58,431 nucleotides of DNA from Candidatus Daviesbacteria bacterium RIFCSPHIGHO2_12_FULL_37_16 (GTDB lineage Bacteria; Patescibacteriota; Microgenomatia; Daviesbacterales; UBA10151). The DNA lies in NCBI GenBank assembly GCA_001776785.1, contig MFDF01000023.1:1-58431 (forward strand), written 5' to 3'. The notes under the pieces were generated by a model. That model was not told the DNA's origin, did not search any database, and saw nothing but the letters and a program-made list of their open reading frames with translations. Position 1 is the stretch's first letter. The number at the start of each line of letters is the position of its first letter. The position numbers and the translations under genes are program-made. Below are positions 3,989 through 43,638 of the stretch, in pieces.

Positions 3989-4498
3989 ATGTTTTCTAAA
4001 ATTTATTTTTATTTAGCTTCATCTTTACTTTTATTTTCAGTTTATTATGAACTGGTGGTTAATGGGTTTAGTTTAGATTTTTATAAGATTTTTTTAATTG
4101 TTACTAATATATTAGTAGTTTTGGGTGGATATTCTTACTTTTTTAAAAAACAGATATTTAGTACAGAGGTTTGGAAAAAAATTTGGTATGTGGTGGCTGC
4201 AAATTTAGGGTTGAGTCTGCTTTTACAGTTTATGCCAAAATTCTTAGCGGGTGAATTTTCAATTTATTATTTTAATTTATTGGCAAATCTGACAGGATTT
4301 ATTTTAGGCACAATTCTTTTTGTCCCACTTTACTTTGCTGTTTATCAGCTAAAGCAGAAAACCTCGGATGTAAATCCGAGGATGAATGCTTTAAATAACA
4401 CAGCTTTAGCTGTGAAGCTGAGAAGAAACCACGGGCGTGAGCCCATGGAGCTTCATAGATTAGCTAATTTTGAGGCTAAAAGTGAGAAAAAGAGATAA
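3989..4498 (+). CDS. Hypothetical membrane protein (169 aa); C-terminal tail encoded by hairpin repeats
   Basis: About 4 hydrophobic segments. The last ~45 codons run through hairpin repeats (CCTCGGATgtaaATCCGAGG, CCACGGGCGTGAGCCCATGG). Confidence 0.55.
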   Translation: MFSKIYFYLASSLLLFSVYYELVVNGFSLDFYKIFLIVTNILVVLGGYSYFFKKQIFSTEVWKKIWYVVAANLGLSLLLQFMPKFLAGEFSIYYFNLLANLTGFILGTILFVPLYFAVYQLKQKTSDVNPRMNALNNTALAVKLRRNHGREPMELHRLANFEAKSEKKR

Positions 4499-4511
4499 GC
4501 CAACTTCCCTC

Positions 4512-4540
4512 TTGCAAAAGAAGTCTAATTGGTGTAAGAT
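4512..4540 (+). promoter_or_regulatory. Sigma70-like promoter upstream of tuf
   Basis: TTGCAA (4512-4517), 17 nt spacer, TAAGAT (4535-4540). Confidence 0.5.
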
Positions 4541-4548
4541 TTCTCAAT

Positions 4549-4575
4549 CCAGCTTAGGAAAAGGGCTGGTTTTTT
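4549..4575 (+). promoter_or_regulatory. Promoter-proximal leader hairpin with U6 tract upstream of tuf
   Basis: CCAGCtt-aggaaaa-ggGCTGG followed by TTTTTT. Starts ~9 nt after the -10 box; the tuf ATG is at 4593. Confidence 0.5.
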
Positions 4576-4592
4576 AAGGCAAATTTAAAAAA

Positions 4593-5771
4593 ATGGCAGG
4601 AACATTTGACAGATCAAAACCACACGTAAATGTAGGAACCATGGGTCATGTTGACCATGGTAAAACTACTCTAACTGCAGCTATAACTAAAGTCCTTTCA
4701 GACAAAGGTATGGCTGAATTTAGGGCTTATGACCAAATTGACTCAGCTCCTGAGGAAAAGGCCCGTGGAATTACAATTAACATCTCCCACCAGGAATACC
4801 AGACAGAAAAAAGACATTATGCCCACATTGACATGCCTGGGCATGCTGATTACATCAAAAACATGATTACAGGTGCTGCACAAACAGATGGAGCAATTTT
4901 AGTTGTGAGCGCTCCAGATGGCCCAATGCCTCAAACAAGAGAGCACTTGCTTTTAGCAAAACAGGTTGGAGTTCCAGCCATTGTAGTTTACCTTAATAAG
5001 ACTGATATGGTTGATGATGCTGAACTTTTGGATCTGGTTGAAGAAGAAGTCAGAGATTTGCTTAAAAAATATGAATATGATCCACAGTCTCCTATAATCC
5101 GCGGTTCTGCTAAAAAAGCATTAGAAGGTGATCCAGAAGCTGTAAAATCTATTGAAGATTTAATGAATGCAGTTGATGAGTGGATTCCAACTCCTGTTAG
5201 GGAAAAGGAAAAACCATTTTTGATGGCTGTTGAGGATGTTTTCTCTATTAAAGGTAGAGGAACTGTTGTGACAGGAAGAATTGAAAGAGGAGTTGTTAAG
5301 ATTAATGAGGAAATAGAGATTGTTGGTATAAGACCAACTAAGAAATCTGTTGTAACAGGTATTGAGATGTTCCATAAGCTTCTGGATCAGGGAGAAGCTG
5401 GAGACAATGCAGGAGTACTTTTAAGAGGTATTGAAAAAGATGATGTTGAGAGAGGTCAGGTTTTAGCAAAGCCTGGATCAATTACTCCACATGCGCAGTT
5501 TGAAGCTGAAATTTATATCCTTTCCAAAGAAGAGGGTGGAAGACACACACCATTTTTTAAAGGATACAGACCACAATTTTATGTAAGGACAACTGATGTG
5601 ACTGGTGAAGTTACTCTTCCAGAAGGTGTTGAGATGGCAATGCCAGGTGACACTACAAAGATCACTGCAAAGCTTATTACTCCAGTTGCTATGGAAGAGG
5701 GATTAAGGTTTGCTATTAGAGAAGGTGGTAAAACTGTAGGTGCAGGAGTTATCACAAAAATTATAGCCTAA
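4593..5771 (+). CDS. tuf: Elongation factor Tu
   Basis: 392 aa. [17 protein letters not shown] and NKTD motifs. Confidence 0.98.
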
Positions 5772-5789
5772 GGTTTAGGTTGTTAGATA

Positions 5790-5810
5790 GGGCCGTAATG
5801 GCCCTTTTTT
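5790..5810 (+). terminator. Rho-independent terminator after tuf
   Basis: GGGCC-gtaat-GGCCC followed by TTTTTT. Confidence 0.6.
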
Positions 5811-5861
5811 AGTAATTAGGGTATAATTGCACATTGAAAGGGAGAAAGGCTGGAATTGTTG

Positions 5862-5891
5862 CATTGTTAGATGGTTAAATTGCTAACAATG
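5862..5891 (+). promoter_or_regulatory. rpsJ leader hairpin
   Basis: 9-bp stem CATTGTTAG / CTAACAATG with a 12-nt loop, downstream of TATAAT at 5822-5827 and 31 nt before the rpsJ ATG. Confidence 0.35.
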
Positions 5892-5921
5892 AAACAGTGT
5901 ATCAATTTCACAATTTAAATT

Positions 5922-6230
5922 ATGGCTAAAGGCAGAATTAGAGTCAGACTCAAAAGTTATGATTATAGAGTATTAGATACAACCTGTGAGCAGCTTTTAG
6001 ATACTGCTCTAAGGACTGGTGCCAAAATTGTAGGCCCTATCCCCCTTCCAACCAGAACTTCAAGAATTACTGTTCCCAAATCCCCTTTTACAGATAAAAA
6101 TTCCCAGGAAACTTTTGAGATTAAAACCCACAAAAGGGTTGTAGATATTATAGAACCAACAGATAAAACTATAGATTCTCTAATGCATTTAGAGCTTCCT
6201 GCAGGTGTGGATATTGAAGTCAAAATGTAA
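5922..6230 (+). CDS. rpsJ: 30S ribosomal protein S10
   Basis: 102 aa. IRVRLKSYD...LPTR...SPF.DK.S.E.FE..THKR pattern. Confidence 0.97.
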   Translation: MAKGRIRVRLKSYDYRVLDTTCEQLLDTALRTGAKIVGPIPLPTRTSRITVPKSPFTDKNSQETFEIKTHKRVVDIIEPTDKTIDSLMHLELPAGVDIEVKM

Positions 6231-6231
6231 T

Positions 6232-6258
6232 CCAAGGTGTTATCCTTGGCTCTCTTTT
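6232..6258 (+). terminator. Terminator-like hairpin directly after rpsJ
   Basis: CCAAGG-tgttat-CCTTGG followed by ctctctttt. Confidence 0.45.
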
Positions 6259-6288
6259 GTCACCCTGAACGAAGTGAATACTAGTTAA

Positions 6289-6670
6289 GTCATTACGAGG
6301 AGCAAAGCGACGTAGTAATCTTTATTCTATAATTTCTTCATAAAGATCTTTGAGTTTTGGGTTAAACTCAAGTATTATTTTTTCTTTTTTAAGTCTGGAA
6401 TAATTTTTTATCTGTTTTTCTCTTAAAATAGCATTTTCAGGATCCTGGAAAATTTCAAAGTAAACTAAATGGTGAATTTGGTATTTTTGACTAAAACCTT
6501 GGACTAAGTTTTGTTTATGTTCCCAAACTCTTCTTTTTAAGTCATTTGTTACTCCGCAATATAGAACTGTTTTGGAAAAGTTTGAGAGTATGTAAACATA
6601 ATATTGTTTATTAGGCATGACTTTATTTTAAATCAAGATTCCTACGCAAACAAAGTTTGCTCGGAATGAC
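6289..6670 (-). mobile_element. GIY-YIG gene cassette bounded by ~33-35 nt imperfect inverted repeats
   Basis: Left end GTCATTACGAGGAGCAAAGCGACGTAGTAATCT (6289-6321). Reverse complement of the right end is GTCATTCCGAGCAAACTTTGTTTGCGTAGGAATCT (6636-6670). The GIY-YIG ORF lies exactly between them. Confidence 0.5.
6322..6618 (-). CDS. GIY-YIG nuclease superfamily protein (small stand-alone type)
   Basis: 98 aa. YYVYILSN...LYCGVTNDLKRRVWEHKQ...REKQIKNYSRLKK matches the GIY-YIG catalytic core. Confidence 0.85.
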   Translation of the reverse strand: MPNKQYYVYILSNFSKTVLYCGVTNDLKRRVWEHKQNLVQGFSQKYQIHHLVYFEIFQDPENAILREKQIKNYSRLKKEKIILEFNPKLKDLYEEIIE

Positions 6671-6836
6671 ATTGTTTGTACTTCGCTGCACTTGCATTTG
6701 TGCGTGAGTGTGTGTTAAAATTCTTTTCAGTACATGCTTAAAGCTTGTTAGGTTAACAACTTGAGATTTTCAGTAGATCGCACGTCGGATTTTACATTAA
6801 AGATACGGCGATTTTAATAAAAAAAAGCGAAATACT

Positions 6837-6871
6837 GAGTGAGGATCCGGCAGCGGACCTCACTCTTTTTT
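6837..6871 (+). promoter_or_regulatory. Leader hairpin with U6 tract upstream of rplC
   Basis: GAGTGAGG (6837-6844) pairs with CCTCACTC (6858-6865), then TTTTTT. A weak candidate promoter lies upstream (TTTACA 6791-6796, 17 nt, TTAATA 6814-6819). Confidence 0.4.
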
Positions 6872-6886
6872 GTGCTTAGTAAAAAT

Positions 6887-7711
6887 ATGTTAAATACATT
6901 GCTCGGAATTAAAAAAGGAATGACTTCTACATACGATTCTCGTGGGAGAAGAGTTGGGGCAACTTTGGTTCAAATTGAGCCTAATTTTGTTACTCAAGTT
7001 AAAGTTGCTGAGGGTAAAGATGGATATAATTCAGTTCAGCTTGGAATTTCTACTAAGAAAAGTTTGAAAAAACCTCAGCTTGGACATCTCAAAAAAGCTG
7101 GTATTGAGAAGGCTACAAGATGGATGAGAGAGATTAGAACAGAAGAAGCACAGCAAGATATTACACCTGGTCAAGAAATACAAATAGGCCAGGTTTTTTT
7201 TGTGGGTGATGCTTTAAAAGTGACTGGAACTTCTAAAGGTAAGGGTTTTCAGGGTGGTGTGAGAAGACATGGATTTCATGGGGGACCAAAGACTCATGGT
7301 CAGTCTGACAGGCACAGAGCACCTGGATCTATTGGTACAGGTACTACTCCAGGCAGGGTTTTAAAGGGTAAGAAAATGGCAGGACACATGGGGTCAGAAA
7401 AGACTAGTTATAGAAATTTAGAAGTTGTATCTGTTGACAAAACAAACAACATTTTAGCTATAAAAGGTGGGGTTCCGGGACCTATTGGGGGGCTTGTGAT
7501 AATAGAAAAGTTAGGAAGAATTAAGGGTTATACTCCACCACCCGAAGAGAAAGAAGAAGAGGAAGTTGTATCTGATGTAGAACAGATGGAAGCAGGCGGA
7601 GGAACGGTAGAAGAGGAGTCGAAGGGGTCGGAAGGGACTGAGGAGTCGGAGGTAAAAGAAAAGCAAATTGTTGAAGATACAAAAAAAGAAGGAGAAGAGA
7701 ATGCCAGTTAA
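6887..7711 (+). CDS. rplC: 50S ribosomal protein L3 with an acidic C-terminal extension
   Basis: Start chosen at MLNTLLGIKKGMT (canonical L3 N-terminus); the longer ORF from 6839 runs through the leader hairpin. The tail PPPEEKEEEEVV...EGEENAS is extra. Confidence 0.93.
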   Translation: MLNTLLGIKKGMTSTYDSRGRRVGATLVQIEPNFVTQVKVAEGKDGYNSVQLGISTKKSLKKPQLGHLKKAGIEKATRWMREIRTEEAQQDITPGQEIQIGQVFFVGDALKVTGTSKGKGFQGGVRRHGFHGGPKTHGQSDRHRAPGSIGTGTTPGRVLKGKKMAGHMGSEKTSYRNLEVVSVDKTNNILAIKGGVPGPIGGLVIIEKLGRIKGYTPPPEEKEEEEVVSDVEQMEAGGGTVEEESKGSEGTEESEVKEKQIVEDTKKEGEENAS

Positions 7712-13193: not shown

Positions 13194-13501
13194 TGCAAAA
13201 ATTGAAAAAGGGGGACAATGTGATGGTATTGGTTGGTAAAGACCGTGGAAGGTCTGGAGCAATTGAGAGGATTGATACAAAAAAGGGCAAAGCTTTAGTT
13301 TTGGGAGTAAATATTTTTAAAAGACATGTTAGAAAAACTGGACAGATGGAGGGTGGAATAATTGAGATTGCAAAGCCTGTTAATTTGTCTAATTTAGCTT
13401 TGGTTTGTCCAAACTGTAAGCGACCTACTAGGGTAGGTTTCCAGATTGAAGCAGGTAAAAAGATGAGAATATGTAAGAAATGTAGAAAGGAGATTAAATA
13501 G
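13193..13501 (+). CDS. rplX: 50S ribosomal protein L24
   Basis: ATG at 13193 overlaps the rplN stop, with a GAAGGAGG SD upstream. MQKLKKGDNVMVLVGKDRG. C-terminal CPNC...CKKC zinc-ribbon-like motif. Confidence 0.93.
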   Translation: MQKLKKGDNVMVLVGKDRGRSGAIERIDTKKGKALVLGVNIFKRHVRKTGQMEGGIIEIAKPVNLSNLALVCPNCKRPTRVGFQIEAGKKMRICKKCRKEIK

Positions 13502-13503
13502 GT

Positions 13504-13570
13504 CGCTTGCGAGATTTTCGCATAATATTGAAATCGATGTTTCAATATTGGCTACAATCTCTTAAAAAGG
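13504..13570 (+). repeat. Hairpin element B, copy 1 (rplX-rplE spacer)
   Basis: Outer stem GAGATT (13511-16) / AATCTC (13556-61). Inner stem TATTGAAA (13526-33) / TTTCAATA (13540-47). Confidence 0.6.
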
Positions 13571-13584
13571 TAACACAAAAAATT

Positions 13585-14139
13585 ATGAATAATTTAAAGA
13601 AAAAATATTTGGAAGAGGTTAGTGAAAAACTAAAAGAAGAATTTGCGGTTAAAAACCATATGGCTATACCTAGAGTTAGAAAAGTTGTTATTAATATTGG
13701 TTTGGCTGATGCAAAAGATAATGCAGGAATTTTAGAAAAGATGAGCGGGAATTTAGGTGCTTTGGCTGGACAAAAACCAGTTGTGACAAAAGCTAAGCAA
13801 TCTATTGCAGCTTTTAAGTTAACAGCAGGTCAGTCAATAGGGCTTATGGTTACTTTAAGAGGAGAGAAGATGTACAGCTTTTTAGAAAAATTATTTAATA
13901 TAGTTTTGCCAAAAGTGAGGGATTTTAGGGGAGTGTCTGATAAAAGTTTTGACAAGAGCGGGAATTATAATTTGGGTTTAAGAGAACAGATTATTTTTCC
14001 AGAAATTGATTACAAAAACATAGATAAACCAAGAGGTTTGCAGATAACAATTAATACAACTGCTAAAAATGAAGAAGAGGGAAAAAGGCTTTTAGAGCTT
14101 ATGGGGATGCCTTTCGTGAAAGGAGCAATAAATGGCTAA
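13585..14139 (+). CDS. rplE: 50S ribosomal protein L5
   Basis: Start at [12 protein letters not shown] (canonical L5 N-terminus). The TTG-initiated extension from 13507 only reads through hairpin element B1. Confidence 0.93.
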
Positions 14140-14311
14140 AGTAAGTAACATTGTGAAGAAAAAGTTTAAATTTGAGGTTCAGAAAACAAACAGGTGTATG
14201 AGGTGTGGCAGACCAAGAGGATATATGAGAAAATTTGGAATTTGCAGGATCTGTTTTAGGGAATTTGTTTATAAGGGATATTTACCAGGAGTTAAAAAAT
14301 CATCATGGTAA
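14132..14311 (+). CDS. rpsN: 30S ribosomal protein S14, short zinc-binding type (59 aa); absent from the ORF track
   Basis: [59 protein letters not shown]. CxxC...CxxC motif. The ATG overlaps the rplE stop. Confidence 0.9.
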
Positions 14312-14315
14312 ATAT

Positions 14316-14378
14316 CCCTTGCGAGAACTTCACAACTATTGAAATCGTTGTTTCAATAGAGTTACGTTCTCTAAAGGG
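14316..14378 (+). repeat. Hairpin element B, copy 2 (directly after the rpsN stop)
   Basis: CCCTT (14316-20) / AAGGG (14374-78). GAGAAC (14323-28) / GTTCTC (14366-71). TATTGAAA (14337-44) / TTTCAATA (14351-58). Confidence 0.6.
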
Positions 14379-14412
14379 CTACCTACCTGGTGTTAAAAAA
14401 TCATCATGGTAG
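14374..14412 (+). repeat. Second, synonymously recoded copy of the last 12 codons plus stop of rpsN
   Basis: AAGGGCTACCTACCTGGTGTTAAAAAATCATCATGGTAG versus 14273-14311 AAGGGATATTTACCAGGAGTTAAAAAATCATCATGGTAA. Both encode [12 protein letters not shown]. Confidence 0.6.
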
Positions 14413-14554
14413 TTGGAAGGAGAAATAAAATATAAAAAATAAAAGATAAAAATTATTGTAATTTCTCGCTTTGCTCGAAATATATATTTTTCAAAACAAA
14501 GTTTAGAAAATTCCTTAATTTTTCATTTTTAATTTTAAATTTTTAATTATTTTT

Positions 14555-14950
14555 ATGGATACAGTTGCAGATGCATTAATTAGAATAAAAAATAGTTATA
14601 TGGCTTACAAGAGCAGTGCTCTTTTGCCATACTCTAAACTTGTGAAATCTATCTGTGAAGTTTTGAAAAATGAGGGGTTTATAGAAAGTTTTGAAGAAGC
14701 TTCATTAAAAGAGGGAAGCAAAGTTAAAGTGTTGAGAGTAGCTTTGAAGTACCAGGATAGAAAACCAGTAATAAATGGGATTAAAAGAATTTCCAAGCCA
14801 GGCCTTAGAGTCTATAAAGGAAAAACAAATCTACCCTTTGTTTTGAATGGTTTGGGAATTGCAATAATTTCTACTCCAAGAGGTGTTATGACTGATAAAA
14901 GTGCTAGAAAAGATGGAGTGGGCGGGGAGGTACTAGCTTATGTCTGGTAG
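14555..14950 (+). CDS. rpsH: 30S ribosomal protein S8
   Basis: 131 aa. DTVADALIRIKN start and GGEVLAYVW end. Confidence 0.97.
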   Translation: MDTVADALIRIKNSYMAYKSSALLPYSKLVKSICEVLKNEGFIESFEEASLKEGSKVKVLRVALKYQDRKPVINGIKRISKPGLRVYKGKTNLPFVLNGLGIAIISTPRGVMTDKSARKDGVGGEVLAYVW

Positions 14951-19778: not shown

Positions 19779-19784
19779 AATTAT

Positions 19785-19848
19785 AAGGACCTGATGTCTT
19801 CGCAGTATGAGATATTGTACTGCTCAGTTATCAGAACCTTGCCTTTTT
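19785..19848 (+). repeat. Hairpin element A, copy 1 (terminator-like, after infA)
   Basis: AAGGACCTGATGTCTTCGCAGTATGAGATATTGTACTGCTCAGTTATCAGAACCTTGCCTTTTT. Stems AAGG/CCTT, CTGAT/ATCAG and GCAGTA/TACTGC. About 94% identical to 43238-43302. Confidence 0.5.
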
Positions 19849-19889: not shown

Positions 19890-20006
19890 GTGAGAGTACA
19901 AGCAAGTATTAAGACAAGATGTAAAGCATGTAAAATCGTTAAACGCGAGGGGATTTTGTATGTTATTTGTCCAAGAGATCCAAAACATAAACAACGTCAG
20001 GGATGA
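19890..20006 (+). CDS. rpmJ: 50S ribosomal protein L36 (38 aa, GTG start); absent from the ORF track
   Basis: (M)[37 protein letters not shown] has the canonical L36 zinc-ribbon pattern. Confidence 0.92.
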
Positions 20007-20014
20007 CGTTGTTT
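19989..20014 (+). other. Perfect 11-bp hairpin that includes the rpmJ stop codon
   Basis: AAACAACGTCA-ggga-TGACGTTGTTT. Its 3' arm overlaps the outer stem of hairpin element B3. Confidence 0.5.
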
Positions 20015-20072
20015 GAGGATAGCTCGTTGCTATTGAAATTGAAAGGTTCAATAGAACTACGCCATCTTAAAC
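20011..20072 (+). repeat. Hairpin element B, copy 3 (after rpmJ)
   Basis: Inner stem TATTGAA (20031-37) / TTCAATA (20047-53). Outer stem GTTTGAGG / ATCTTAAAC includes G-U pairs. Confidence 0.5.
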
Positions 20073-20093
20073 AAAGACAAGGATAAAAGATTT

Positions 20094-20312
20094 ATGAATA
20101 CAGAAAGAATAAGACAATTAAAAGGTAATGTAAGAGAAGTTGGGAGAATTGTTGGTATAACTCTCCAGCTTGCCTTAGACCCAAGAACTGATCCTGATTT
20201 TATAAGATTACAGCAAAGATGGAATACAACTAGAGTTGATGGGTTAGGTAATCCACAATCATTAGCAGCTAGAATTAAACAAACAATTAGAGGGGGGCAA
20301 GCTAATGGCTAG
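20094..20312 (+). CDS. Hypothetical basic protein (72 aa) inserted between rpmJ and rpsM
   Basis: AAGGA SD upstream. Its stop overlaps the rpsM start by 8 nt (ATGGCTAG). No family recognised. Confidence 0.5.
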
Positions 20313-43212: not shown

Positions 43213-43237
43213 AAATTTTTGTGCCTGGGAGGATCGT

Positions 43238-43302
43238 AAGGACCTGATGCCTTCGCAGTATGTAATATTTTACTGCTCAGTTATCAGAACCTTGCCTTTT
43301 TT
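43238..43302 (+). repeat. Hairpin element A, copy 2
   Basis: AAGGACCTGATGCCTTCGCAGTATGTAATATTTTACTGCTCAGTTATCAGAACCTTGCCTTTTTT. Differs from copy 1 mainly in the terminal loop. Confidence 0.5.
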
Positions 43303-43327: not shown

Positions 43328-43638
43328 TCGCCTAGGAAGAGTATAAGCCAGATTCTGTTGGGAAAGTTTTATCTGAGTCTGCTTTCCCTGCGATAATTTA
43401 TCTAATGCTCCTCATTTCAACAAATGTACGAGCAGTACTGTTGGTTCTAGGATTGCAGCGGGGAGGATTGCCCGTTTCATTCACCACATCCGCCTGCTGG
43501 CGGACTGTGACTCGTTTCTGTTGCTCTATACTTGCGGTTACCCGAGCCAGCTTACGCTGGCCACCCTACTCTGCGCTGTCTGGACTTTCCTGACCCAATG
43601 ATTTCTCAAAGGACCTAATCGCCCATCTTCCCAGGCTT
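43328..43638 (-). ncRNA. rnpB: RNase P RNA, bacterial type A, compact (~311 nt)
   Basis: On the minus strand: P4 strands AGGAAAGUCCA and ACAGAAUCUGGCUUAU, GCAACAGAAA (J11/12-like), GGUGGCCAGCGUAAGCUGGC. P1 pairs GCCUGGGAAGA (5') with UCUUCCUAGGC (3'). Confidence 0.9.

Follow-up and report, generated by a model that had tools for sequence, protein, structure and literature searches.

When the elements e14 and phage 21 integrate at icd, the functional gene enters the element, which supplies an alternative C-terminal end, and the displaced end persists downstream as the relic icdC (PMC13626634). In the case of e14, the two ends differ mostly synonymously, and on excision the downstream copy becomes the end of the gene again (PMC13626634). 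In fungal mitochondria, mobile open reading frames (mORFs) in atp6, atp9, cox2, and nad3 of Glomus and in atp6 of Allomyces combine an inserted C-terminal with a native C*-terminal (PMC3630166). The gene-end copies at mORFs have low DNA identity and encode nearly identical protein, which was read as horizontal transfer of the gene end along with the element (PMC3630166). The known gene-end-replacing insertions are kilobase-scale prophages, islands, and endonuclease open reading frames (ORFs), but here a gene-less hairpin of about 60 nucleotides (nt) seems to do the same. This hairpin element lies at the end of the ribosomal protein gene rpsN in contig MFDF01000023.1 of Candidatus Daviesbacteria bacterium RIFCSPHIGHO2_12_FULL_37_16. 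The whole stretch that we analysed, 58,431 nt, is referred to as the window, its positions are used throughout, and the copy of the element at rpsN is called B2.

Like elements of the e14 type, the hairpin element is bounded by direct repeats of the end of its target gene, and the proximal copy completes the gene. In contrast to e14, which is about 15 kb and has its own integrase and excision functions, it is an insert of 62-101 nt without a gene, is built on a covarying hairpin, and occurs in many copies per genome at many genes. It also differs from integrase-type elements in general, as the insert between the two gene ends of B2 is 62 nt and no recurrent recombinase is found within 2.5 kb of 58 copies. 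The mORFs carry a LAGLIDADG or GIY-YIG endonuclease for homing, whereas there is no ORF in the hairpin element. Also, comparison with relatives clearly identifies the downstream copy as the native one in the fungi, while the same test is ambiguous here. We regard the hairpin element as a new variant of the gene-end-carrying integrative elements that falls outside every named family; a keyword search of the literature found no description of it.

The duplicated end of rpsN

The window includes part of the spc-alpha ribosomal protein cluster of Candidatus Daviesbacteria (Microgenomates, in the Candidate Phyla Radiation or CPR), and among L5 homologues with a name, the nearest belong to Daviesbacteria. 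An earlier reading of this DNA (the original prediction) had noticed that the last 12 codons of rpsN and its stop codon recur 101 nt downstream with only silent differences, and a direct-repeat comparison confirmed this: positions 14273-14310 and 14374-14411 agree at 33 of 38 sites. The two ends, including their stop codons, are AAGGGATATTTACCAGGAGTTAAAAAATCATCATGGTAA (copy 1) and AAGGGCTACCTACCTGGTGTTAAAAAATCATCATGGTAG (copy 2), and they encode the same 12-amino-acid peptide. Five differences are synonymous (GGA/GGC, TAT/TAC, TTA/CTA, CCA/CCT, and GGA/GGT), and the sixth is in the stop codon (TAA/TAG). The probability that six random substitutions in this 39-mer would all be silent is 4.5e-5. 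This is the sole such repeat in the window, and no pair of 39-mers with at least 33/39 matches was found in five shuffles.

Between the two copies lies a structured segment with two parts, a site-specific segment (X') and a conserved core directly 3' of it. X' is 8-14 nt long across the copies of the element and ends in CTT or TTT. At B2, it pairs perfectly with the start of copy 1 (X), and the duplicated region begins exactly at X. The pairing of X' with the start of copy 2 (X*) is weaker (11/14) and forms the outer stem, P1. The element folds as P1, a 2x2 loop, helix P2, an internal loop, and the apical hairpin P3, with covariation as described below. Inverted-repeat and fold analyses agree with the original prediction that the outer stem (CCCTT/AAGGG) uses the first bases of copy 2, and the fold of 14260-14425 has a z-score of -5.3. 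Table 1 lists these features along with those of two further copies in the window, B1 and B3.

Table 1. Positions of the three hairpin elements of the window and of the gene ends beside them (R1 is the covariance model of the core)
Feature	Position	Strand	Basis or remark
rpsN, zinc-type S14, 59 amino acids; functional gene, ends in copy 1	14132-14311	+	ORF; Pfam Ribosomal_S14 on identical contigs
B2 copy 1, final 12 codons of rpsN plus TAA	14273-14311	+	direct repeat
B2 X, first 14 nt of copy 1, AAGGGATATTTACC, partner of X'	14273-14286	+	inverted repeat
B2 X', GGTAAATATCCCTT, perfect reverse complement of X, overlaps the rpsN stop	14307-14320	+	inverted repeats
B2 conserved core	14321-14373	+	R1, 79 bits, E = 8e-18; covariation
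B2 helix P2, GAGAAC with GTTCTC	14323-14328 with 14366-14371	+	covariation
B2 apical hairpin P3, loop CGTT	14336-14345 with 14350-14359	+	covariation
B2 copy 2, second, synonymously different rpsN end plus TAG, no gene body attached	14374-14412	+	direct repeat
AT-rich spacer before rpsH, 142 nt	14413-14554	+	opens with TGGAAGGAGAAATAAA, resembling a ribosome-binding site (RBS) and similar to rpsN's own RBS
B1 copy 1, last 27 codons of rplX (L24) plus TAG, starting at X, AAGCGACCTA (13418-13427)	13418-13501	+	
B1 element, between rplX and rplE; X' TAGGTCGCTT (13499-13508), core 13509-13563	13499-13572	+	R1, 74.5 bits
B3 copy 1, last 5 codons of rpmJ (L36) plus TGA, AAACAACGTCAGGGATGA, KQRQG*	19989-20006	+	
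B3 element; X' CGTTGTTT (20007-20014), complement of AAACAACG (19989-19996)	20007-20068	+	R1, 32 bits (E = 1.6e-5; match 20006-20077)
B3 copy 2, AAACAAAGACAAGGATAA, KQRQG*, synonymous differences only	20069-20086	+	

The original prediction had also stated that copy 2 is out of frame with copy 1 and has no start codon of its own. The first part holds (101 = 3x33+2), but the second does not: an ATG at 14305, which overlaps the TGGTAA of rpsN, opens a 35-codon ORF (14305-14412) that enters copy 2 in frame. We regard it as probably fortuitous because, in another copy of the element (locus L032), the open frame that spans the core is out of frame with copy 2. The ORF is peculiar to the rpsN locus, and it could be called as a small protein by gene callers.

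The exact S14 protein is present on 22 contigs. We read the junction in seven of these: one is from NCBI, and JGI metagenomes, Logan assemblies, and ENA megahit k141 assemblies contribute two each. All seven have the same 243-nt interval between rpsN and rpsH, and the interval is identical to the window except for one single-nucleotide polymorphism at 14317; the NCBI contig MFCW01000028.1 is among the identical ones. (The variant is C>A, inside X', in an ENA contig, L006, and lies close to the contig end.) In each of four public groundwater or soil sequencing runs, a single contig spans 14000-14417 with 0 differences and no joints, at a depth of 7.5-30x.

A covarying hairpin at many gene ends

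B1 is a sister copy of B2. We used the exact 22-nt apical hairpin TATTGAAATCGNTGTTTCAATA as a search pattern, against one genome per species of the Genome Taxonomy Database as well as JGI and ENA metagenome contigs. The pattern matched 25 genome loci and 48 metagenome loci, which represent 58 distinct copies. Nearly all of the copies are in Daviesbacteria, Curtissbacteria, other Microgenomates, Saccharibacteria, or unclassified Patescibacteria. Metagenome-assembled genomes (MAGs) that are labelled 'uncultured Gammaproteobacteria' carry the element as well (L023/L025, L012, L015, L016, L021, L030, and L032). L023 and L025 are a Gammaproteobacteria-labelled locus and a Microgenomates MAG locus with identical sequence; these labels are probably wrong or the bins mixed.

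The structured element is about 60 nt, of which about 55 nt are the conserved core with helices P2 and P3. Beyond the search pattern itself, the copies have CTTGCGAG...CTCTAAAG in common, along with the 6-bp helix P2, which occurs in compensatory variants (GAGAAC/GTTCTC, GAGTAC/GTACTC, GAGATC/GATCTC, and GAAAAC/GTTTTC). In an alignment of 55 sequences, P2 is 91% paired; 5 of its 6 pairs have 8-19 double compensatory changes, and the sixth has 2. The pair 28-51, which is just outside the search pattern, is CG in 35 sequences, UA in 11, and AU in 9, and it is never broken. The covariation score is 0.332 versus 0.132 for shuffled alignments (0/500 reach the observed value), and slid partners score at most 0.135. 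The covariance model R1, which was built from this alignment, recovers all three copies in the window (Table 1) and detects additional copies in several loci.

A known RNA family was rejected after comparison with Rfam 15, which at the gathering threshold reports only RNase P and one tRNA in the whole window; at E <= 10, the region 13380-14600 gives only chance matches to snoRNAs and miRNAs. An origin in phages or plasmids was rejected because two scans of viral contigs found no copy of the element. We conclude that the hairpin element is widespread in CPR/Patescibacteria and so far undescribed in Rfam or in the literature that we searched.

X' is specific to each site, and the duplicated stretch starts exactly at X. 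X' is complementary to the upstream X at 9/10 positions or more in 26 of 44 loci and perfectly complementary in 12 of the 44; the mean complementarity is 8.5, versus 6.6 in shuffled controls. In the three smpB loci, X and X' covary (AAG/CTT versus AAA/TTT). X and X* open with codons for one tRNA, AAA/AAG or, in L053, AAC/AAT. Finally, the cores of L016 and L053 are nearly identical; they lie at two different genes, and each has an X' that matches its gene.

Most copies, read on the + strand of the element, start 0-15 nt past the stop codon of a co-oriented gene. In at least 14 of them, a second copy of the gene's last 5-27 codons and stop follows directly after the core. (Outside the window, the gene names are our reading of translated ORFs only.) The duplicated ends are those of S14 (B2), L36 (B3), L7/L12 (L022 and L032), S15 (L031 and L039), SmpB (L029, L045, and L058), a proton-translocating pyrophosphatase (PPase; L082), an M23 peptidase (L009 and L015), a small protein (L021), glyceraldehyde-3-phosphate dehydrogenase (L053), and a large (>960-aa) unnamed protein (L047). 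Across nine pairs that encode identical peptides, there are 0 non-synonymous differences in 119 comparable codons, and 36% of the codons are identical. The DNA identity within a pair is at most 85%, so no pair is nearly identical. The idea that selection for one peptide shaped both copies of the rpsN end is supported by this pattern, which recurs at many other genes and in many other genomes. The copy-to-copy spacing (99, 101, 102, 110, 145, or 203 nt) has no fixed phase. Given the spacing and the mismatched frame in L032, read-through or frameshifting into copy 2 is excluded as a general mechanism.

Within the window, the X' of B1 includes the stop codon of rplX and pairs perfectly with the segment 71 nt upstream, but of the second copy only a short remnant is present (AAAAAGGTA). 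B3 has a diverged core with a different apical loop, and its copy 2 ends 7 nt ahead of the ATG of the next ORF. The arrangement at B2 fits the suggestion that an insertion carried or regenerated the end of its target gene, and further copies flanked by duplicated gene ends occur at rpmJ and at the many genes listed above.

The second copy is not always intact. It is truncated to its first 8-13 nt or decayed in B1, L037, and L018 (a further Daviesbacteria, in which the element occupies this same site of rpsN), and in L022 it has a 19-nt insertion. Such decay is seen in copy 2 only. L022 also includes an array in which one small gene, for a 71-aa HTH_17/MerR-type protein, is followed by two cores and three copies of the gene end, all encoding KKEAVLWLLGITQKTS*. 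Within L022 (~4020-7600, on the reverse strand as oriented), toxin-antitoxin pairs that we named BrnT/BrnA-like and MazE/MazF-like from sequence alone come after the rplL element; a 386-aa Trans_reg_C protein and the HTH_17 array come next. The 386-aa ORF was considered as an integrase and rejected, as Pfam gives only Trans_reg_C. The same BrnT/BrnA-like pair also lies behind the smpB element in L029.

A second class of flank (..TCCGCAT...ACCGAACC) adjoins tRNA genes on the opposite strand, with duplicated pieces of the tRNA (L010, L011, L014, L020, L026, L027, L028, L036, L057, L063, and L068). For example, L014 has an intact tRNA-Glu and a 61-nt partial copy that begins in the T-loop, and L020 has a 13-nt duplicate of a tRNA 5' end. 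In L017, the duplicated piece is the 5' end of a gene. These antisense and 5'-end copies with their duplicated pieces argue for an element that acts at the DNA level. In L014, the tRNA directly adjoins a 506-aa ORF whose N-terminus is serine-recombinase-like; by motif only, this ORF resembles a large serine recombinase.

At smpB, copy 2 abuts the same downstream sequence in L045 and L058: its stop codon is directly followed by TGGTGGAG..., which is conserved between the two hosts. By eye, this sequence looks like the 3' end of ssrA or of a convergent tmRNA/tRNA-like gene.

Several other systems can be compared with the hairpin element. In integron cassettes, the attC site has two helices, an unpaired central spacer, and a variable terminal structure; its outermost helix needs the first bases of the following unit to be complete, and the cassettes form arrays, are non-autonomous, and are moved in trans. 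The attC sites are imperfect hairpins that are recognised by their structure and not by their sequence (PMC2727003). The hairpin element is similar in that P1 is formed by X' and X*, in its small GC/TA internal loop followed by P2, and in the array of L022. However, its terminal hairpin is conserved in sequence, which is the opposite of attC, and it has no R'' (RYYYAAC) or R' (GTTRRRY) boxes; instead, the consensus CTTGCGAG...CTCTAAAG is shared while P2 covaries freely. The cargo is also different, as it is the end of a gene and not an entire ORF, and the copies are dispersed over housekeeping genes. Neither an IntI gene nor an attI/Pc platform was found near the copies, which is the part of the genomes where we looked for intI.

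Transposable elements of the miniature inverted-repeat type (MITEs), repetitive extragenic palindromic sequences and the mosaic elements built from them (REP/BIME), Correia elements, and Rickettsia palindromic elements (RPE) are, like the hairpin element, non-coding hairpin repeats of 50-150 nt with many copies, mostly next to genes. Repeats of the MITE or REP type have fixed terminal inverted repeats, target duplications of 2-10 bp or none, and autonomous relatives among IS or RAYT elements. In the hairpin element, each locus has a different X', which fits the gene beside it, the duplication at the flanks spans 8-84 nt and is synonymously diverged, and no transposase partner was found near the copies. 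The palindrome-associated transposable elements (PATE), which are derived from IS200/IS605 insertion sequences, have subterminal hairpins at both ends and insert 3' of a fixed tetra- or pentanucleotide without duplication. In contrast, the hairpin element has a single core and long flanking duplicates, and the only constant at its junction is AA(G/A/C).

The stacking of three gene ends in L022 is reminiscent of the rhs genes, where the core of the gene adds new C-terminal ends and the older tips are displaced as downstream orphan arrays (PMC2935791). Yet rhs tips are kilobase-scale and encode different toxins, while the stacked ends in L022 encode the same peptide, with a hairpin core between each. 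Lastly, in translational bypass (as in T4 gene 60 or the mitochondrial byp elements), matched codons for take-off and landing flank an untranslated gap in an ORF that is otherwise interrupted. At our loci, X and X* do open with codons for the same tRNA. However, the upstream ORF is complete with its own stop codon, the gaps span 62-190 nt, and copy 2 is missing from many loci.

Origin of the two gene ends

Our preferred reading, which we hold tentatively and rate at somewhat short of an even chance, is that B2 belongs to a family of miniature, non-autonomous cassettes in CPR/Patescibacteria that replace gene ends. The cassette unit would consist of a substitute gene terminus (copy 1 from X onward, with its stop codon and sometimes a terminator), X', and the folded core. 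In a free, folded form, X' would pair with X and close the core by a perfect outer helix. Integration would occur directly 5' of the homologous resident X*, with the join between the CTCT(A) at the 3' end of the core and AAG. The end supplied by the cassette would keep the gene intact, while the resident end (copy 2) would be stranded downstream, untranslated, and would later decay. Both copies would have evolved as working gene ends in different genomes, hence the nearly exclusive synonymous differences, and repeated events would build arrays. Recombination between overly similar copies would remove the element, so that only insertions between already diverged copies escape deletion; this would explain why the silent divergence is nearly saturated. 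The cassettes might spread with the help of a trans-acting recombinase for which the folded core is the recognition signal, or else by natural transformation and homologous recombination, with the two gene-end copies as homology arms. The architecture and its recurrence, the covarying fold, the match of X with X', the empty site in a relative, the decay of copy 2 only, and the excess similarity of copy 1 to relatives are observations. That the cassette travels together with copy 1, where it joins the resident gene, that its folded DNA is recognised, and that a recombinase acts in trans we infer.

The element recurs at essential, conserved genes (for ribosomal proteins, SmpB, and tRNAs) over a large and poorly understood part of the bacterial tree. 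If the cassette model is true, then the element would represent a new family of non-autonomous mobile DNA, together with an enzyme or pathway that moves it. Even the ribosomal protein operons of the streamlined CPR genomes would then have taken in insertions and been swapped in part from lineage to lineage, with consequences for phylogenies that are built from these genes. The element would also be a natural system for studying how diverged direct repeats guard an insertion against deletion, and R1 would let annotators mask pseudo gene ends and spurious ORFs such as 14305-14412.

Comparison with relatives bears on which copy is the import. The closest genomes (84% identical to the window in L5 and 82% in S8) both lack the element at the junctions that we compared. 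In L034, the junction is an empty site, with 18 nt between the ...TGGTAA of rpsN and the ATG of rpsH (instead of 243 nt); in L008, the spacer between rplX and rplE is 59 nt of unrelated sequence. Judging from these sequences, the elements were either gained in the lineage of the window or lost in these relatives. Relative to the gene end of L034, copy 1 of B2 is identical at 36/39 nt and copy 2 at 30/39. Among identical amino acids, copy 1 of B2 has the same codon as the element-free relative in 9/11 cases and copy 2 in 4/11 (P = 0.08). For copy 1 of B1 and B2 together, this proportion is 29/37 (78%), versus 305/530 (57.5%) for the flanking genes (P = 0.015). Similarly, the 84-nt copy 1 of rplX is 88% identical to L008, while the body of the gene is 68% identical, and the switch occurs at X. 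In the two control comparisons, which were made with L018, the tails do not rise in this way (62-63%).

This is only modest evidence that copy 1 was exchanged horizontally with the lineage of L008 and L034, with a breakpoint at X. We take copy 1 to be the likelier import because of its excess similarity to these relatives, because X matches X' perfectly, because copy 2 adjoins resident sequence downstream (at smpB in L045 and L058, and at B3), and because only copy 2 decays. Copy 2 of B2 is probably the displaced resident end of rpsN. By the logic of the sequence, a deletion of 14273-14373 would restore an intact rpsN.

A number of observations weigh against the cassette model. First, no empty-site, excised, or circular form was found among the assembled contigs of this species. 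The reversible insertion and excision that the original prediction had suggested as a polymorphism is therefore not demonstrated. Second, when both hosts carry the element (the PPase, rplL, M23, rpsO, and smpB pairs; a ligase pair was misaligned and left out), copy 1 is no more similar than the body of the gene. Third, in the smpB trio, the identity is 67% for the gene bodies, 74-77% for the copy 1s, and 70-77% for the copy 2s, and copy 1 is 64-68% identical to copy 2 within a genome and 59-67% between genomes. All of the smpB copy 2s are intact (22 codons and stop) and retain RRIEQELRGKE* by silent changes only. An old structure, inherited vertically and with selection on both copies, would account for this pattern at least equally well. 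Fourth, the two copies share host-specific residues (D/D versus G/G in S15, P/P versus A/A in the M23 peptidase, and A/A versus G/G in L7/L12), which is unexpected if one copy came from a random foreign donor. Fifth, it is copy 2 of B2, not copy 1, that is less similar to the relative, which fits only with a donor nearer to that relative. Sixth, the model leaves unexplained where a new X' comes from when the core colonises a new gene (compare L016 with L053). Finally, an all-against-all comparison of 343 ORFs from the neighbourhoods of the 58 copies found no recurrent recombinase, transposase, or reverse transcriptase (the recurrent neighbours are only host genes, toxin-antitoxin pairs, and pilins), and no such enzyme was found on viral contigs either.

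One alternative is that the polarity is reversed: copy 1 is the resident, and X', the core, and copy 2 (perhaps with more sequence downstream) were inserted just past the resident stop codon. Copy 2 would then be a foreign gene end carried along by the core, and X' would have been adjusted to the resident X afterwards, for instance through template switching in the quasi-palindrome. It would account for the closeness of copy 1, rather than copy 2, of B2 to the element-free relative, and given the long rpsN-rpsH interval, the insert could include the AT-rich tail. On the other hand, at nearly every locus X' is a perfect match to copy 1 but not to copy 2, so an extra correction would be needed each time. 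Copy 2 is contiguous with conserved resident sequence at the smpB junction of L045 and L058, and an untranslated passenger would be expected to degenerate over the lineage of the element, yet many copy 2s are intact. Furthermore, what stands out in copy 1 is an excess of similarity to the relatives over the background, not background similarity. We consider reversed polarity unlikely.

Another alternative is an old duplication in place, that is, one long target duplication of which both copies are used. Copy 2 would have stayed under selection on the protein because it serves part of the expression, through reversible excision, through intron-like removal of RNA from X to the end of the core, or through a ribosomal hop from the Lys or Asn codon at X to the same-tRNA codon at X*. 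The smpB trio favours this explanation, as the copy 1s group together and the copy 2s group together in spite of the divergence of the gene bodies, and every copy 2 is kept whole. So do the shared host-specific residues and the same-tRNA codons at X and X*. Also, X' can pair with either X or X*, so that the two junctions would fall at one position relative to the core. But young duplicates in place should be nearly identical in DNA, and there is no such pair; and identical 40-nt repeats that are 100 nt apart would presumably be deleted faster than they diverge. The many loci with a decayed copy 2 or with none indicate that copy 2 is dispensable. A mechanism that acts on RNA or in translation does not explain the copies that are antisense to tRNAs or at gene 5' ends, and plain read-through is excluded as described above. 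(The locus was found in 0/3 RNA data sets, which were tiny SOLiD metatranscriptomes.) Overall, we think it improbable that both copies are in use in this way.

A further proposal is that the element is a structure-guided mobile DNA or a mobile intron-like RNA. X' would act as a guide that picks X* and sets the junction at the foot of a catalytic or recognition hairpin, and the element would home to homologous genes and supply a spare end. In a sharper version, copy 2 would be the true 3' exon and copy 1 a backup within the element, which would amount to alternative gene-end usage in bacteria. That copy 2 stays protein-like over a long divergence does raise the question of whether two alternative ends of one bacterial gene are used. 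We give this proposal a low probability.

The core could instead be mainly a cis-acting RNA of the host in the 3' untranslated region (UTR), such as a stabiliser or processing site of the 3' end, a terminator-like hairpin, or an operator for a ribosomal protein (for example, an S8 site near rplE and rpsH), with the duplicates as by-products of its spread. The location of most copies shortly after the stop codon of a co-oriented gene, many of them genes for ribosomal proteins or other conserved housekeeping functions, would suit such a role, as would the strong fold and the covariation. Also, B1 lies where S8 regulates the spc operon in E. coli. The absence of the element from the same junctions of the closest relatives means that it is not a conserved operator, and the element occurs after unrelated genes, beside tRNAs, and in antisense. 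There is no T-run behind the hairpin, and even the permissive Rfam search gave no RNA family. Finally, an RNA role does not explain the duplicates, although it could coexist with mobility. We doubt strongly that a cis-acting role is the main one, but an additional RNA role of the core in 3' UTRs is possible.

The weakest alternative, which the original prediction had raised itself, is that the assembly joined two strain variants; the genome is derived from a metagenome and the copies differ as strain variants might, but the identical junction in many samples and across four assemblers or sources (k = 141 contigs with both copies among them), the single spanning contigs in four runs, and the same architecture at other genes and in other genomes make the chance of this negligible. 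Targeted mutagenesis of the kind performed by diversity-generating retroelements was also rejected, as the differences (A>C, T>C, T>C, A>T, A>T, and A>G) are all silent and not adenine-specific, and there is no reverse transcriptase nearby.

Other sequences in the window

The AT-rich spacer that follows copy 2 of B2 may be a further insertion or a promoter region. It holds a 44-nt imperfect inverted repeat (14423-14466 and 14505-14548). The RBS-like sequence at its start now has no start codon behind it, while the ATG of rpsH (14555) has no obvious RBS.

Downstream of B3, between rpmJ and rpsM, there is a 72-aa ORF (20094-20312) without a Pfam match, at a place where there is usually no ORF. 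The window also contains a distinct, hairpin-rich repeat of 65 nt, whose two copies are 94% identical: one is at 19784-19848, after infA, and the other is at 43237-43301, where it adjoins the RNase P RNA gene (43328-43634, minus strand). This repeat is another dispersed element, perhaps the one that had been called element A in the original prediction.

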